DNA of 20,000 nucleotides, taken from contig CAYMBN010000006.1 in the NCBI GenBank assembly GCA_964388715.1, forward strand, positions 51,167 through 71,166, in the 5' to 3' direction. The position numbers and the translations under genes were made by a program. Positions 5,553-10,414 of the stretch are shown in pieces. This DNA is from an uncultured Methanosarcinales archaeon. GTDB taxonomy: Archaea; Nanobdellota; Nanobdellia; Woesearchaeales; CAYMBN01. Below the pieces are notes generated by a model. It searched no databases and had not been told where the DNA came from. It worked only from the letters and a program-made list of their open reading frames with translations. Every line of letters starts with the position of its first letter. Position 1 is the first letter of the stretch.

Positions 5553-7274
5553 ATGTTAAGAACTCATACTTGTGGTGAACTTACCAAAAAGAATATTGGT
5601 AAAAAAGTTGAATTATGTGGTTGGTTAGATAGTAAAAGAGAACATGGGAATGTTACTTTTGTTAATTTAAGGGACCGATATGGTGTAACACAGGTTGTTT
5701 TTAATGAAAGTGTTCGTGACCTTAAAAATGAGTTTGTTCTAAGAGTTAAAGGTACTGTTAAAAAAAGGCCCGAATCTAATAAAAAATTAAAAACAGGTGA
5801 AATTGAAGTTGAAGTTAATAGTTATGACATTCTTAATAAGTGTGATGTTTTACCTCTTGATTTGAGTGGACAAGTTGAATCTACAGAAGAAACAAGAATG
5901 AAGTATAGGTATCTTGATTTGAGAAGACCAGAAATACAAAAGTTTTTTGTGATAAGGGATAAAGCAATACTTAGTGCAATGAATTTCATGAATAATAATA
6001 ATTTTATTCATCTTGAAACACCTTTATTAGTTAAGGCAACACCAGAAGGAGCTAGAGATTATATTGTTCCAAGTAGAGTTAATAAAGGAAAATTTTATGC
6101 ATTGCCTCAAAGTCCACAGTTGTATAAACAAATTCTTATGGTTGCTGGTTTTGATCGTTATTATCAAATTGCTCGTTGTTTAAGAGATGAAGATTTAAGA
6201 TCTGATAGACAACCAGAACATACACAAATTGATATTGAAATGAGTTTTATTGAAGCAGAAGATTTATATAAATTAGTTGAAGGTTTAATGAAAGCTATAT
6301 TTAAAGAGGGAATTGGTTTTGATGTTAAAGTTCCATTTAAGAGATTTACTTATGATGAAGCAATGAATAGATTTGGTTCTGACAAGCCCGATATAAGATT
6401 TGGTTTGGAGCTTGTTGATGTTTCCGATATAATGAAAAAAAGTGAATTTGGAATTTTTAAATCAGTGATTGAGTCTGGTGGAAATGTTAAATGTATTAAT
6501 GCAAAAGGTTGTGGAAAATTTTCAAGGAAAGAAGTTGATGAACTTGAAAAAGTTGCTAAAACATACCATGCAAAAGGTTTGGTTAGAATTAAGATGATTG
6601 ATAAGTTAGAAGGAACAGTTGTGAAGTTTTTTAGTGAGAAAGTACAAAAAGAATTAATTAAAAAAACTGAGGCAAAAAATGGAGATTTGTTACTGTTAAT
6701 AGCAGATAATTTTAAGACTTGTTCAGAAGCTCTTGGACAAGTGAGAATATTTTTAAGAGATAAACTTAATCTGATTAAGAAAGAAGAGTTTTCATTTTGC
6801 TGGGTTGATAATTTTCCATTATTTGCTTGGAATGAAGAAGAAAAAAGATGGGAACCAGAACATCATATGTTTACAATGCCACAAAAAGAATTTATTAAAG
6901 ATTTTGAAAAAAGACCTGGTAATGTAAAAGGTGTTTTATGGGATTTAACATTAAATGGAATTGAACTTGGCTCTGGTTCAATACGTGTTTCTGATCCAGT
7001 ATTACAAGAGAGAATAATGAATTTTATTGGACTTCCTAAAAAAGAAGCTCATAAAAAGTTTGGTTTCTTGCTTGATGCTTATAAGTATGGTGGACCTGTA
7101 CATGGAGGAATTGGTCTTGGTTTTGATAGAATGATTGCATTAATGTGTGGTTTAACTGATATAAGAGAAATCATTTTGTTCCCTAAAAATAAGGATGCGG
7201 CATGTTTAATGGATGATTCTCCTGGTGAAGTTGATAGAAAACAGTTAGATGAAGTTGGAATAAAATTAAAGTGA
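5553..7274 (+). CDS. aspS: Aspartyl-tRNA synthetase, bacterial type with GAD insertion domain
   Basis: MLRTHTCGEL N-terminus, TPEGARDYIVPSR, ALPQSPQLYKQILM, RDEDLRSDRQPE, HGGIGLGFDR; 573 aa; SD GGGTG at 5543-5547. Confidence 0.96.
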   Translation: MLRTHTCGELTKKNIGKKVELCGWLDSKREHGNVTFVNLRDRYGVTQVVFNESVRDLKNEFVLRVKGTVKKRPESNKKLKTGEIEVEVNSYDILNKCDVLPLDLSGQVESTEETRMKYRYLDLRRPEIQKFFVIRDKAILSAMNFMNNNNFIHLETPLLVKATPEGARDYIVPSRVNKGKFYALPQSPQLYKQILMVAGFDRYYQIARCLRDEDLRSDRQPEHTQIDIEMSFIEAEDLYKLVEGLMKAIFKEGIGFDVKVPFKRFTYDEAMNRFGSDKPDIRFGLELVDVSDIMKKSEFGIFKSVIESGGNVKCINAKGCGKFSRKEVDELEKVAKTYHAKGLVRIKMIDKLEGTVVKFFSEKVQKELIKKTEAKNGDLLLLIADNFKTCSEALGQVRIFLRDKLNLIKKEEFSFCWVDNFPLFAWNEEEKRWEPEHHMFTMPQKEFIKDFEKRPGNVKGVLWDLTLNGIELGSGSIRVSDPVLQERIMNFIGLPKKEAHKKFGFLLDAYKYGGPVHGGIGLGFDRMIALMCGLTDIREIILFPKNKDAACLMDDSPGEVDRKQLDEVGIKLK

Positions 7275-8318
7275 TTTTCCTTTCTTGATTTTTTCCCTTA
7301 ACCTTTCCATAAATTTTTGCATATAGTAAAGATTATGGTAAGATTTTAAGATGTATGCATTTGGTTCGTTAATTTTTGTTAAGTAACGGATGTATGCTCT
7401 GCTGTAGTTTTTACAAACAAAGCAGTTGCAGTTTGAGTCAATTGGTTTTTTATCATTTTGGAAGGCTTTGTTTGTGATTTTAAGAATCCCTTTACTTGTT
7501 AACATGAAATTGTGTCTTGCAACTTGTGTTGGATAAACAGAGTCAAAACAATCAATACCTTGTTTTACTGCTTGAATAATATCATCAGGGTGACCAATAC
7601 CCATTGTGTAACGTAATTTATTTTCTGGTAATAAAGAAGTTGTTTTCATTGAGTCATATGTCTTTTTTTGTGGTTCACCTATTGCTAAACCACCAAGTGC
7701 GTAGCCGTCAAAGTCTAGTGATGTTATTTGTTGGATGGATTTTTTTCTGAGGTCTTTATGGAATCCTCCTTGGCAGATTCCAAAAAGTAGTTGTTTCTTG
7801 TTTTTATGGAATTGTTTACAGAGTTTAGCCCATTCATAAGTTTTGTTTAATGAGTAAAGTACTTGTGATCTGTTTTGGTTTGGTAGTGGCATTAAGTCAA
7901 GAACCATTGCAATATCACTTGCTATTGTGTTTTGGTTTTGCATACATTCTTTTGGAGTTAATAAATGATGTGAACCATCGAAAGGACTTTTGAAATGAAT
8001 GCCTTTATCTGTTATCTTTTGACAGAAATCTCTTATTACTTGGAAACCGCCTGAGTCAGTGAAGATTATGTCTTTGTAGTTCATGAATTTGTGAAGTCCA
8101 CCATGTTTTTTTATTAGTTGATTTCCTGGTTTTAATGAAAGAAGAAGAGAGTTTGCTATGATTGCTTTTGCGCCGATTGTATTAAGTTGTTCTGATAGAA
8201 CATGTCTTGGAGCTGCTTTTGTTGCAACTGGCATAAAAAAAGGAGTTTCTATCTTCTTGTTGTTTACTTTGAATATTCCTGTACGTGCTTTACCTAAGTT
8301 GTGAGTGATTTTTAGCAT
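7266..8318 (-). CDS. tgt: tRNA-guanine transglycosylase, bacterial (queuosine/G34) type
   Basis: TPFFMPVAT, TDSGGFQV, DIAMVLD, FGICQGG, GGLAIGE, YTMGIG, DCFDSVYPT and Zn site CNCFVC...HN; 350 aa with no C-terminal PUA extension. Confidence 0.93.
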   Translation of the reverse strand: MLKITHNLGKARTGIFKVNNKKIETPFFMPVATKAAPRHVLSEQLNTIGAKAIIANSLLLSLKPGNQLIKKHGGLHKFMNYKDIIFTDSGGFQVIRDFCQKITDKGIHFKSPFDGSHHLLTPKECMQNQNTIASDIAMVLDLMPLPNQNRSQVLYSLNKTYEWAKLCKQFHKNKKQLLFGICQGGFHKDLRKKSIQQITSLDFDGYALGGLAIGEPQKKTYDSMKTTSLLPENKLRYTMGIGHPDDIIQAVKQGIDCFDSVYPTQVARHNFMLTSKGILKITNKAFQNDKKPIDSNCNCFVCKNYSRAYIRYLTKINEPNAYILKSYHNLYYMQKFMERLREKIKKGKSL

Positions 8319-8323
8319 AGAAA

Positions 8324-8770
8324 TTATACCTCATCTAGGACAACCAGTGTTTGTGTTCTATCAACACCATCTATATTACGGAGGGTCCTTGTAATAAAAT
8401 TATTTAATTCTGATATGTTTGTTGTTCTTAGTTTAATAATGATATCTGTTTCACCTGTTACCATATCAACTGATTCAACATAAGAATTTTTCTTTATTTT
8501 AAATGCAATATCTTTTTGTTCTAGCTTTTTACCTGATTTTAAGGTATAATCAACTGTTACAAAAATGTATGCACAGATTGTTTTACCAAGTTTTTCATGA
8601 TCAATATTAATTGTAAAGTTTTTTATGATACCTTGCTGAGTTAATCGTTTAATTCTGTTGTGTACTGTTGTAATTGGAAGGGAAACTTTTTTAGAAATTT
8701 GACTAGTAGTAAGTTTTGCGTTATTTTTTAATACGTCTAAAATTCTTAAATCTTTTCCATCTATTTTCAT
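8324..8770 (-). CDS. Lrp/AsnC family transcriptional regulator
   Basis: N-terminal HTH (IDGKDLRILDVLKNNAKLTTSQISKKVSLPITTVHNRIKRLTQQGII) and RAM domain (VDMVTGETDIIIKL). Its stop is 5 nt upstream of tgt, whose SD (GAGGT) lies in the end of this gene. Confidence 0.95.
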   Translation of the reverse strand: MKIDGKDLRILDVLKNNAKLTTSQISKKVSLPITTVHNRIKRLTQQGIIKNFTINIDHEKLGKTICAYIFVTVDYTLKSGKKLEQKDIAFKIKKNSYVESVDMVTGETDIIIKLRTTNISELNNFITRTLRNIDGVDRTQTLVVLDEV

Positions 8771-8773
8771 ATA

Positions 8774-8790
8774 ATGGAATAATATTCCAT
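8774..8790. promoter_or_regulatory. Perfect 8-1-8 palindrome, candidate Lrp/AsnC operator
   Basis: ATGGAATA-A-TATTCCAT lies between the TATA box (TTTATAAA, 8793-8800) and the start codon (8770) of the regulator gene. Confidence 0.7.
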
Positions 8791-8846
8791 ATTTTATAAA
8801 TTTTTTGGTATTTTTTTGTATATATTTTCATTTTAAAAAAGATAGT

Positions 8847-8854
8847 TTTAAATA
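8847..8854 (+). promoter_or_regulatory. TATA box for the small ORF at 8878
   Basis: Purine-rich AAAAGATAG then TTTAAATA, ending 23 nt before ATG 8878; same spacing as other promoters in the window. Confidence 0.5.
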
Positions 8855-8877
8855 TAATGGGTGAATTCTGAAAACCA

Positions 8878-8979
8878 ATGAAAAAATCAAAAAGAAAATT
8901 AAAACCATTGTTCAGGCTAAAGAGAAAAGCTTGCCTGAAAGCACTTTTTCTAGATCAAAATCTTTTGAATAATAATTGA
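8878..8979 (+). CDS. Putative 33-aa small ORF / leader peptide upstream of asnS
   Basis: Hand translation: MKKSKRKLKPLFRLKRKACLKALFLDQNLLNNN*. It is below the ORF-track size cut-off and has a TATA box at leaderless spacing. Confidence 0.4.
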   Translation: MKKSKRKLKPLFRLKRKACLKALFLDQNLLNNN

Positions 8980-9021
8980 GATGTCTGTTTTTATCAGATC
9001 AATGTATTTTTTCAATAAAGT

Positions 9022-9076
9022 TTTAGAACCATCAAGCAGAGCTTGAGGTTTCTAAACGGTTTCGACCCTGTCGAAA
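9022..9076. repeat. Two adjacent inverted repeats upstream of the asnS promoter
   Basis: TTTAGAACCATCAAGC-aga-GCTTGAGGTTTCTAAA (9022-9056; 14 of 16 positions complementary) and TTTCGAC-cct-GTCGAAA (9060-9076). Confidence 0.75.
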
Positions 9077-9086
9077 ACTTTATATA
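9072..9086 (+). promoter_or_regulatory. BRE + TATA promoter of asnS
   Basis: CGAAAAC-TTTATATA, with SD GGTGA at 9113-9117 before ATG 9122. Confidence 0.7.
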
Positions 9087-9121
9087 ATATAAAACTAAAT
9101 AAAATCATAATTGGTGAAAAA

Positions 9122-10414
9122 ATGAAATTTGTTAGTATACAAGAAGCAATGGATAAAGGAAAAGGCAAAGTCTCTATAAGAGGTTGGGTTTATAGAGAAA
9201 GAAAAAGTAGCAAATATGCCTTTATTATACTTAGAGATAGCTCTCACACTATTCAATGTGTGTTTGATGCAAAGAAATTTGGAAAAAGGTGGAAAGATAT
9301 TGATAAAATACTTATTGAGTCTGCTATGGAAATAAGTGGACAGATAAAAAAGGATGACAGAGCACCAACAGGTTATGAAATTCACGCAGAAGATTTTAGA
9401 GTAGAACATTATGCAGAACCATTCCCAATTGTAAAAGATCAAAGTCCTGAGTTTTTAGCTGATAAAAGACATTTGTGGCTAAGAAGTCAGAAAATGATTG
9501 CTATTATGAAAATACGATCAACTATTTTTGGTGCAATCCATGATTATTTTAGAAAACAAGGTTTTTATGAATTTCAGAGTCCTATTTTTCAGCCAACCCA
9601 ATCAGAAGGTGGTTCTACTGTTTTTACTGTACCTTATTTTGGTGATAAAGTTTATCTAGCACAAACATGGCAATTACAAGCTGAAACAGCTATCTTTGCA
9701 TTAGAAAAGATTTATTGTATTGCTCCTAGTTTTAGAGCAGAGAAATCAAAAACTTCACGTCATTTAACAGAATATTGGCATGCTGAAATGGAAATGCCTT
9801 GGTGTAAGTTTGAGGATTTGCAAGATCATGGTGAAGCATTGGTTAAACATGTTGTTAAAGACGTTCTTAAGAAACATAAAAAAGATTTGAAAACATTGAA
9901 AAGAGATATTAAAAAGTTAGAACCTGTTGTTAAAAAACCATTTTTAAGAATAACTTATGATAAAGCATTGAAGATTCTTAAAGATAAATGCAAGATGAAG
10001 GTTGAATGGGGTAAAGATTTAAGAACAATTGAAGAAGAAAAATTAACTAAATTGTATGATGTGCCAATAATTGTAACTGATTATCCAAAAGTTGTTAAAG
10101 CGTTTTATATGAAAGAAACTCCTGGGAAATCTAAGTGTGTGCAAGGGTTTGATTTTTTAGCACCAGAAGGATATGGTGAAATAATTGGTGGATCACAAAG
10201 AGAAGAAGATATTGAAAAAATTAAGAAAAGGTTAAAAGAGCAAGGTGAAGATCCTAAAGATTATGAATTCTATCTTGATACTCGTCGATATGGGTCAGTG
10301 CCACATGGTGGATTTGGTTTTGGAGTAGAAAGAGTCATTGCATGGGTGTGTGGTCTTGATACAATTAAAGATGCAATAGCATTTCCAAGGACAATGGTTA
10401 GGTATAAGCCTTAA
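9122..10414 (+). CDS. asnS: Asparaginyl-tRNA synthetase
   Basis: OB-fold (VSIRGWVYRER...FIILRDSS), RHLWLRS, motif 2 FRAEKSKTSRHLTEYWHAEME, GEIIGGSQRE, motif 3 YGSVPHGGFGFGVER; 430 aa. Confidence 0.93.
   Translation: MKFVSIQEAMDKGKGKVSIRGWVYRERKSSKYAFIILRDSSHTIQCVFDAKKFGKRWKDIDKILIESAMEISGQIKKDDRAPTGYEIHAEDFRVEHYAEPFPIVKDQSPEFLADKRHLWLRSQKMIAIMKIRSTIFGAIHDYFRKQGFYEFQSPIFQPTQSEGGSTVFTVPYFGDKVYLAQTWQLQAETAIFALEKIYCIAPSFRAEKSKTSRHLTEYWHAEMEMPWCKFEDLQDHGEALVKHVVKDVLKKHKKDLKTLKRDIKKLEPVVKKPFLRITYDKALKILKDKCKMKVEWGKDLRTIEEEKLTKLYDVPIIVTDYPKVVKAFYMKETPGKSKCVQGFDFLAPEGYGEIIGGSQREEDIEKIKKRLKEQGEDPKDYEFYLDTRRYGSVPHGGFGFGVERVIAWVCGLDTIKDAIAFPRTMVRYKP

Follow-up and report, generated by a model that had tools for sequence, protein, structure and literature searches.

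An Asn-terminated leaderless reading frame upstream of asnS in a woesearchaeal genome: a candidate asparagine-sensing leader

What is a 33-codon open reading frame (ORF) that ends in three asparagine codons doing between a divergent regulator gene and asnS, the gene for asparagine--tRNA ligase, in a woesearchaeal genome? The ORF lies within a stretch of 20,000 nucleotides (nt) of contig CAYMBN010000006.1 (assembly GCA_964388715.1), here called the window, and the genome to which it belongs has a size of 1.3 Mb, a G+C content of 30.8% and a completeness of 95.75%. A first-pass annotation had described the ORF as a candidate Asn-sensing leader of asnS, an interpretation that is supported by the comparisons presented here. 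We think it fairly probable that 8847-8979 is transcribed and translated as a short unit, a leaderless mRNA belonging to a family of Asn leaders in Woesearchaeota (DPANN archaea), and that its function is to gauge the charging of tRNA(Asn) with asparagine. In the comparison set G numbers denote genomes and L numbers loci, G000 being the genome of the window; coordinates given without a contig are those of the window.

The leader reading frame and its promoter

The leader and its immediate surroundings contain the following features.

8847-8854, plus strand: TATA box TTTAAATA of the leader transcript, read from the sequence, 23 nt before the ATG at 8878
8878-8979, plus strand: leader ORF, 33 codons (coding 8878-8976) and a TGA stop (8977-8979), predicted to be leaderless, with counterparts at the homologous promoter position elsewhere
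8911-8939, plus strand: 7-bp stem within the ORF, 8911-8917 with 8933-8939, the 3' arm lying over Cys-Leu codons
8968-8976, plus strand: three consecutive AAT (Asn) codons (31-33) before the stop, read from the sequence, the presumed sensing codons
8980-9000, plus strand: small hairpin (arms 8983-8987 and 8995-8999) that begins directly after the stop codon, from reading and folding of the sequence
8988-9012, plus strand: runs of five (T5, 8988-8992) and six (T6, 9007-9012) thymines, read from the sequence, candidate archaeal termination signals at which termination is presumed

On direct reading of the sequence the TATA box, the start codon, the 33-codon frame and the terminal Asn-Asn-Asn were all found as annotated, and so were the two stems at 8911-8917/8933-8939 and 8983-8987/8995-8999. 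The crowding of all four Asn codons near the end of the ORF, three of them just before the stop, was likewise confirmed; every one is AAT, the fourth being codon 28 (8959-8961). The distance from TATA box to ATG corresponds to a leaderless layout, since a regular expression recovers distances of 22-25 nt at six other genes of the window (the annotation had counted seven that share the spacing), while the window genes with a GGTGA Shine-Dalgarno site, asnS included, have their TATA box 35-41 nt upstream. The leader ORF ends 142 nt before asnS, on the same strand, and the peptide has no match in NCBIfam. Contigs from four DNA sequencing runs are identical over the leader (8600-9300 compared), which is uninformative on selection.

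The run of three AAT codons is by itself unremarkable; as the annotation had cautioned, such runs are common in AT-rich DNA, and the nine-base string has 177 copies on the two strands of this genome. The remarkable part is its placement at the end of a promoter-proximal ORF. Among 10,548 short ORFs of 12-45 codons in all six frames of the same genome, 0.84% carry an Asn-Asn pair among their final four residues, and 0.019% terminate in Asn-Asn-Asn.

The promoter from which the leader would be transcribed is shared with a divergent gene, left unnamed in the annotation, for which the following features were recorded.

8324-8770, minus strand: Lrp/AsnC-family regulator gene, 148 amino acids, divergent from the leader (Pfam PF01037, AsnC_trans_reg; PF13412, HTH_24; PF13404, HTH_AsnC-type)
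8775-8789, no strand assigned: perfect palindrome TGGAA-N5-TTCCA beside the regulator start codon, the presumed regulator box (autoregulation), to which binding is putative
8793-8800, minus strand: TATA box serving the regulator gene, at a leaderless distance of 22 nt from the start codon, from a TATA spacing scan

The regulator combines an N-terminal winged helix-turn-helix with a C-terminal AsnC-type ligand-binding domain, all Pfam scores being above cut-off, and no NCBIfam equivalog reached its cut-off for this protein; gene context alone suggests asparagine as the ligand. The TGGAA-N5-TTCCA palindrome is the sole perfect match in the window, near-matches occurring at chance level, and it recurs at the equivalent place in orthologous loci. 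When the whole regulator-asnS spacer was searched as DNA against 401 genomes of the order, matches were confined almost entirely to its first ~88 nt (promoter region 8771-8858) and to the palindromic modules in front of asnS; the body of the ORF has no matches because it is too diverged for a DNA search. The regulator box, both TATA boxes and their spacing are conserved in G001, G061, G084, G172, G302 and other genomes.

Recurrence of Asn-ending leaders and a Thr counterpart

In other Woesearchaeota, orthologues of the regulator (46-60% identity) adjoin asparagine genes. The closest of them (46-55% identity) face a bacterial-type asnA (G061, G302), an asparaginase-domain gene (G172), an AsnRS-like synthetase gene (G001), or a decayed AsnRS-like gene followed by asnS (G084). 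An alignment of the regulator was used to collect 80 genome and 80 metagenome loci; together with four earlier loci and the window, 165 loci held the regulator, and 133 of these were non-redundant with at least 250 nt upstream. The first gene beyond the shared promoter is an Asn gene (AsnA, AsnRS-like synthetase, AsnB or AsnRS) in 37 of the 133, representatives having been checked with Pfam, and asnS is often the next gene after the synthetase gene.

As an unbiased count, every ATG ORF of 12-70 codons beyond the regulator's promoter was scored in loci where the gap measured 150 nt or more. An Asn-Asn pair among the final four residues was found in 7 of 23 sense ORFs, distributed over 7 of the 15 Asn-gene loci with such a gap. 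The controls comprised the antisense ORFs of the same loci (0 of 15) and the sense (1 of 78) and antisense (2 of 76) ORFs of 41 loci with other first genes, together 3/169; Fisher's test gives p = 1.4e-5 by ORFs and p = 1.9e-4 by loci. A comparison of related upstream regions had been proposed with the annotation as a check, and the outcome, 7/23 at Asn-gene loci against 3/169 in controls, agrees with its prediction of conserved short ORFs ending in Asn. The counts are not an artefact of very close genomes, because the regulators are only 46-60% identical. Of the eight remaining Asn-gene loci, seven carry an ORF with one Asn among its last four codons: six lie before asnB and share Asp-Tyr/His-Arg-Asn or Phe-Tyr-Asn tails, and the seventh, in front of asnA, has a lone Asn as its final residue. 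The eighth lacks such an ORF.

Leaders in front of asnA, AsnRS-like synthetase genes or asnS, that of the window included, have their ATG 22-24 nt after the TATA box. Two of the asnB leaders are leaderless and one stands behind a Shine-Dalgarno site (three leaders only, read by eye). In a separate comparison of 22 asnS loci out of 41 genomes of the order, an Asn-Asn-terminated upstream ORF was found in three, namely the window genome, G020 and G031, and the upstream ORFs of G007 and G019 have one or two separated terminal Asn codons. A leader preceding asnS with no intact synthetase gene between them was seen in G031 (L020, no regulator nearby) and in G084 (L039). The closest parallel to the window is G031, where the leader stands directly before asnS with T5 and T6 between the two and with neither a regulator nor a synthetase gene. 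In the ~680 nt between regulator and asnS at L039 there are a leader ORF ending in Asn-Asn, a structured stretch rich in G+C and a fragment of 95 amino acids that resembles the middle of an AsnRS-like synthetase; a synthetase gene in decay is the probable explanation.

In 13 non-redundant leaderless leaders, a set assembled by hand, Asn occupies 24 of the 52 last-four positions and 7 of the 237 elsewhere. Asn near the end is encoded by AAT in 23 cases and by AAC in one, so that AAT/AAC interchange, which the annotation had named as decisive, is present but slight. The stop codon is TGA in five, TAA in four and TAG in four, and the lengths (17-33 codons) vary by whole codons; varying stops together with whole-codon length changes are a stronger sign of a frame that is read than AAT/AAC interchange. 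Between L055 and L150, 2 of 69 ORF positions differ and many more do so in the flanking leader, as judged by eye rather than by a computed rate.

Wider sampling of asnA and thrS loci yielded mostly bacterial sequences because both archaeal genes are of bacterial type, and these bacterial loci were used solely as negative controls. Upstream of 73 bacterial asnA genes, whose products are ~50-55% identical to archaeal AsnA, 2 of 128 short ORFs have an Asn ending, both in one locus of 25% G+C, which argues that the Asn leaders were not inherited with the bacterial genes.

The genome of the window was also scanned as a whole for TATA-spaced short ORFs in intergenic space (n = 47). Four of the 47 have a doubled residue in the last four positions and a downstream gene, and one of these four is the Asn ORF itself. 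The scan further led to an ORF of 32 codons (G000 contig 8, minus strand, ~37170-37270; L291:1973-2071) that ends in a long Thr run mixing ACT, ACA and ACC, has a TATA box 20-23 nt upstream and lies 81 nt before thrS (TIGR00418, 698 bits; cut-off 384). It is followed by a T5 run and then by a proximal TATA box and Shine-Dalgarno site, a layout that matches that of asnS.

An upstream short ORF with at least four Thr in the last eight residues was found at 4 of the 30 thrS loci of the order (window genome, G007, G020 and G022), against a base rate of 17/15,811 ORFs, and the other 26 of the 30 have no Thr-run upstream ORF. When other residues were scored in the same way at the thrS upstream regions, each gave at most two such ORFs, and Asn gave none. 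No Thr-run ORF occurs among the 188 ORFs at 64 bacterial thrS loci or at four further archaeal thrS loci. The ThrRS of the window genome is 50-59% identical to its best-matching loci, mostly from Firmicutes. The Thr-run ORFs before thrS support the general idea of cognate leaders.

The remaining two of the four ORFs with a doubled residue, like further ones that a looser scan brought up, are non-cognate to the genes behind them. Several such candidates in the same genome were rejected or left unexplained. A Phe-rich short ORF before a PheRS-alpha-like gene starts inside the upstream gene, lacks a TATA box and owes its Phe codons to the T-rich terminator of that gene; a Tyr/Leu-rich ORF before a LeuRS-like gene lies within a divergent promoter, and the gene itself is leaderless. 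The genes downstream of a Thr-run ORF on contig 17 (phosphoenolpyruvate-synthase-like) and of an Ile-run ORF on contig 13 are non-cognate, so that these two are due to chance or unexplained. The Ile-run ORF (minus strand, ~22620-22690; L292:3124-3190) has 21 codons, is TATA-spaced and carries six terminal Ile codons; it is followed by a G+C-rich stretch and a T8 run and then by a G+C-rich orphan gene of 173 amino acids without a family match.

From leader to asnS: mechanism and alternatives

The region between the leader and asnS, and asnS itself, were annotated as follows.

9020-9077, no strand assigned: two tandem palindromic modules of a genome-wide promoter-upstream family that is not specific to asnS, from BLAST of the spacer against the genome
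9079-9086, plus strand: proximal TATA box of asnS, 35 nt before the ATG at 9122, with the layout of the other Shine-Dalgarno genes of the window
9113-9117, plus strand: Shine-Dalgarno-like GGTGA of asnS, read from the sequence
9122-10414, plus strand: asnS, asparagine--tRNA ligase, 430 amino acids (NCBIfam equivalogs NF003037 and TIGR00457)

The asnS product scores 497.8 bits with NF003037 (cut-off 414) and also exceeds the cut-off of TIGR00457, and its score with the AspRS(Asn) model (342.7) is below that model's cut-off of 353. The BLAST search returned near-copies of 9049-9084 and of 9022-9052 at other sites of the genome, and there the palindromic modules end directly at TATA boxes, including those of ribosomal-protein genes, a tRNA gene and an S-adenosylhomocysteinase-like gene. 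A motif at the module junction occurs 43 times on both strands of the genome compared with 5 times in a simulated genome of equal composition, a count that replaced a generic count of palindromes, which had been too noisy. The stems at 9022-9076, listed in the annotation as potential leader structure, do exist, but they belong to this genome-wide palindrome family and were ruled out as part of an attenuator. Since the modules are shared across the genome, 9020-9077 represents the usual promoter-upstream architecture and the promoter at 9079 looks normal; asnS has, as the annotation had cautioned, a proximal promoter of its own. Modules of the form GTTT...AAAC abut TATA boxes at 9020-9077 and at about 30 other sites of the genome, and they may be terminator/promoter insulators.

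Our proposal for the leader is the following. The TATA box at 8847 would drive a leaderless mRNA whose first 33 codons end in Asn-Asn-Asn-stop. If charged Asn-tRNA were scarce, the ribosome would stall on the terminal Asn codons, 10-35 nt upstream of T5 and T6, and more RNA polymerases would read across the asnS promoter into asnS. With plentiful asparagine the ribosome would finish translation and leave, and transcription would stop at the T runs to give a short transcript. A basal level of asnS would come from the proximal promoter at 9079, and the AsnC-like regulator would add control by free asparagine at the upstream promoter.

The stall could be relayed through protection of the nascent RNA against intrinsic or factor-dependent termination, through RNA refolding or through stabilisation of the mRNA. 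Archaeal polymerases terminate at oligo-T without a hairpin, and the archaeal termination factor needs free nascent RNA. From the geometry of the locus and this general knowledge, we infer that a stalled ribosome close behind the polymerase at the T runs may hinder termination, and we prefer this relay. In the 50 nt that follow the stop, 8 of 17 leaders contain a T5 run, as do 118 of 631 control ORFs (p = 0.008), a mild enrichment that gives weak support because the controls include coding DNA.

It is conceivable, and in our judgement an evenly balanced matter, that Woesearchaeota possess a ribosome-read sensing network, in which leaderless mini-ORFs that end in runs of cognate codons (Asn, Thr) precede the matching tRNA-synthetase genes and synthetase operons and are coupled to archaeal termination (oligo-T, possibly FttA) and not to hairpin switches of the bacterial type, with an AsnC-type regulator layered on top for asparagine.

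The 249-nt leader is predicted to fold slightly more stably than shuffled sequences (z = -2.2), 5 of 200 shuffles being equally good. Six close leaders share a predicted stem of 10 pairs in which the 5' end is paired with Cys-Leu-Ala codons, and the window leader has a different 7-bp stem over the same Cys-Leu codons. The annotation had suggested folding the region for mutually exclusive structures and covariation, and neither emerged beyond one compensatory pair in the shared stem. Three explicit switch models were tried and obtained no support from constrained folding or hairpin stability: pairing of the 3' arm of the post-stop hairpin with the Shine-Dalgarno site, pairing of the Asn/stop region with a downstream element, and a scheme of 1:2/3:4 against 2:3. 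No Rfam family, T-box included, reached its gathering score in the window, and the only match to 8771-9130 at E values up to 1 was an unrelated small nucleolar RNA model (E = 0.99).

Several of these results weigh against a sensing leader. The consensus fold of the six close leaders is backed by that single compensatory pair; placing a ribosome on the Asn codons or the stop in eight leaders caused no consistent change in the exposure of the downstream ribosome-binding site; and 45-nt segments around the stop codons of 17 Asn and Thr leaders are not more structured than those of 651 control ORFs, with mean folding energies of -4.1 and -4.4 kcal/mol, respectively (p = 0.54). The gap is shorter than 150 nt in 22 of the 37 Asn-gene loci, where the synthetase gene itself is leaderless; these loci have no room for a leader, and the device must accordingly be optional. 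The 13 leaders were chosen by eye, and leaders at different loci share ancestry, so the counts do not represent independent events. asnS has its own promoter, so that read-through is not needed for its expression. Finally, the synthetase gene that usually follows the leader is absent from the window locus, and the leader may therefore be an orphan.

This last point is the starting point of the most serious alternative, in which the ORF is a true member of the Asn-leader family that was orphaned by deletion of an asparagine-synthetase gene and now yields a dead-end transcript with no control. In the relatives the homologous promoter drives asnA, an AsnRS-like synthetase gene or asnB, and then asnS, and neither AsnA nor an AsnRS-like paralogue was found in the 95.75%-complete window genome. 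G084, with fragments of the AsnRS-like gene between leader and asnS, would represent the intermediate state, and in the window T5, T6 and the complete proximal promoter separate the leader from asnS. Decay of the leader itself is not apparent, however, because the TATA spacing, the open frame, the three Asn codons, the internal stem and the regulator gene are all intact. In G031 a leader stands directly before asnS with neither a synthetase gene nor a regulator, so the pairing of leader and asnS exists by itself, and in the window genome thrS has the matching arrangement of leader, T run and proximal promoter. We consider an orphaned leader unlikely, if worth keeping in mind, and lean towards a sensor that still works in the window genome.

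The same genome encodes, at 83036-84490 of contig 1 (minus strand), a protein of 483 amino acids with an asparagine-synthase-type ATP-pyrophosphatase domain lacking the glutaminase domain, fused to a second PP-loop-like domain; it may or may not make asparagine.

Alternatively, the locus might encode a small peptide or small RNA that serves some function other than asparagine sensing. The N-terminal half of the leader peptide is strongly basic, and short ORFs can encode functional micro-proteins; against this, neither sequence nor length of the peptide is shared between genomes, except for the terminal Asn and a short Cys-Leu-Ala-like stretch, which makes such a function improbable.

We find it marginally harder still to believe in an untranslated RNA or DNA signal, in which the AAT-AAT stretch would be a motif bound by a protein, by the regulator or, in the manner of a T-box, by tRNA-Asn, and the ORF would be incidental. 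The nucleotides AATAATTG around the stop are common to many leaders, and six leaders are predicted to form a stem involving the 5' end. Such a signal does not explain why the stop varies among TGA, TAA and TAG, why the length changes by whole codons, why an extra Cys, Gln or Arg codon follows the Asn pair in some leaders, or why the ATG keeps the leaderless distance from the TATA box (22-24 nt in leaders before asnA, AsnRS-like and asnS genes). The Thr-run ORFs before thrS follow the same logic with different codons, and a T-box, like every other Rfam family, went without a match.

A chance ORF in an AT-rich spacer, for which the 177 copies of the three-AAT run and the abundance of short ORFs might be cited, is very improbable in view of the 0.84% base rate of Asn-Asn endings and their recurrence at a homologous promoter specifically before Asn genes.

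Related systems and neighbouring genes

The closest published system is that of the polycysteine leaderless short ORFs of mycobacteria (Ms5788A type). They have been demonstrated experimentally and act by unmasking a sequestered ribosome-binding site, two consecutive codons suffice, and several loci respond to one amino acid (Canestrari et al., bioRxiv, 10.1101/834739). With them the Asn leaders share an ORF at the 5' end of the transcript (here predicted from the TATA spacing), at least two consecutive cognate codons and the presence of pathway genes downstream. They differ in their archaeal host, in TATA promoters, in a downstream gene with its own promoter, and in being predicted from sequence. 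Sequestration of the ribosome-binding site as in mycobacteria was not found, exposure of the site showing no consistent change in the folds of eight leaders and asnS of the window lying 142 nt away behind its own promoter.

The leader ORFs of Escherichia coli pheM-pheST, thrL, trpL and hisL are rich in cognate codons near their end and precede a synthetase gene (pheST) or a biosynthetic operon; in bacterial attenuators a terminator and an antiterminator hairpin exclude each other. The leader of the window resembles pheM-pheST as a cognate-codon ORF before a synthetase gene, and the ORF before thrS resembles thrL in its Thr-rich tail. Unlike the classical attenuators, no mutually exclusive hairpins were found by folding, and the Rfam leader families gave no match.

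In the E. coli asnC-asnA pair an AsnC-family regulator gene is divergent from an asparagine-synthetase gene, and no Asn leader peptide is known there. Orthologues of the window regulator are likewise paired divergently with asnA, whereas in the window that partner is missing and what lies opposite the regulator is the leader followed by asnS. T-box riboswitches of Firmicutes, which stand before genes of the thrS and asnS type, respond to tRNA charging from within the leaders of synthetase genes. The same quantity would be sensed in the same kind of place here, with an ORF instead of an RNA-tRNA contact as the proposed sensor and without a T-box match.

Leader-peptide attenuation is a textbook mechanism of bacteria that needs coupled transcription and translation, and archaea couple the two processes as well. 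Full-text literature searches found no report of leader-peptide control in archaea. This archaeal mini-gene probably allows the ribosome to gauge the supply of asparagine, a type of control so far established only in bacteria. If that is true, a second domain of life would be using ribosome stalling to sense its metabolism, in organisms with TATA promoters, leaderless mRNAs and termination that needs no hairpin, and leader-peptide attenuation would have arisen or persisted in archaea with a different read-out mechanism, which for this leader family would be directly testable with reporters. For DPANN archaea, whose genomes are tiny and which rely on the import of amino acids, gauging tRNA charging at synthetase genes makes sense.

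Some further observations concern the regulator and its neighbours. In L057, L083, L098, L141, L149, L171, L193 and other loci a regulator orthologue is paired with a gene of 162 amino acids that consists of an N-terminal asparaginase domain only and is usually followed by gatE; this gene could encode a split or minimal GatD-like subunit under an AsnC-like regulator. ORFs of 157 and 211 amino acids lie between the regulator and asnS in L066 and L119, with weak matches, below threshold, to a YbaK-type aminoacyl-tRNA editing domain. At ~44513 of contig 11 of the window genome (L295), an ORF of 10 codons, among them three for Asn close to the end, stands 10 nt before another Lrp-like regulator gene, of 323 amino acids.

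To the left of the regulator lie a bacterial-type tgt (queuine type) and then a bacterial-type aspS with a GAD domain, and the cluster as a whole spans 5553-10414. tRNA-Asp and tRNA-Asn are both queuosine-modified in bacteria, and the grouping of aspS, tgt, the regulator and asnS may be functional. Synteny of aspS, tgt and asnS was also found in G003 and G010.

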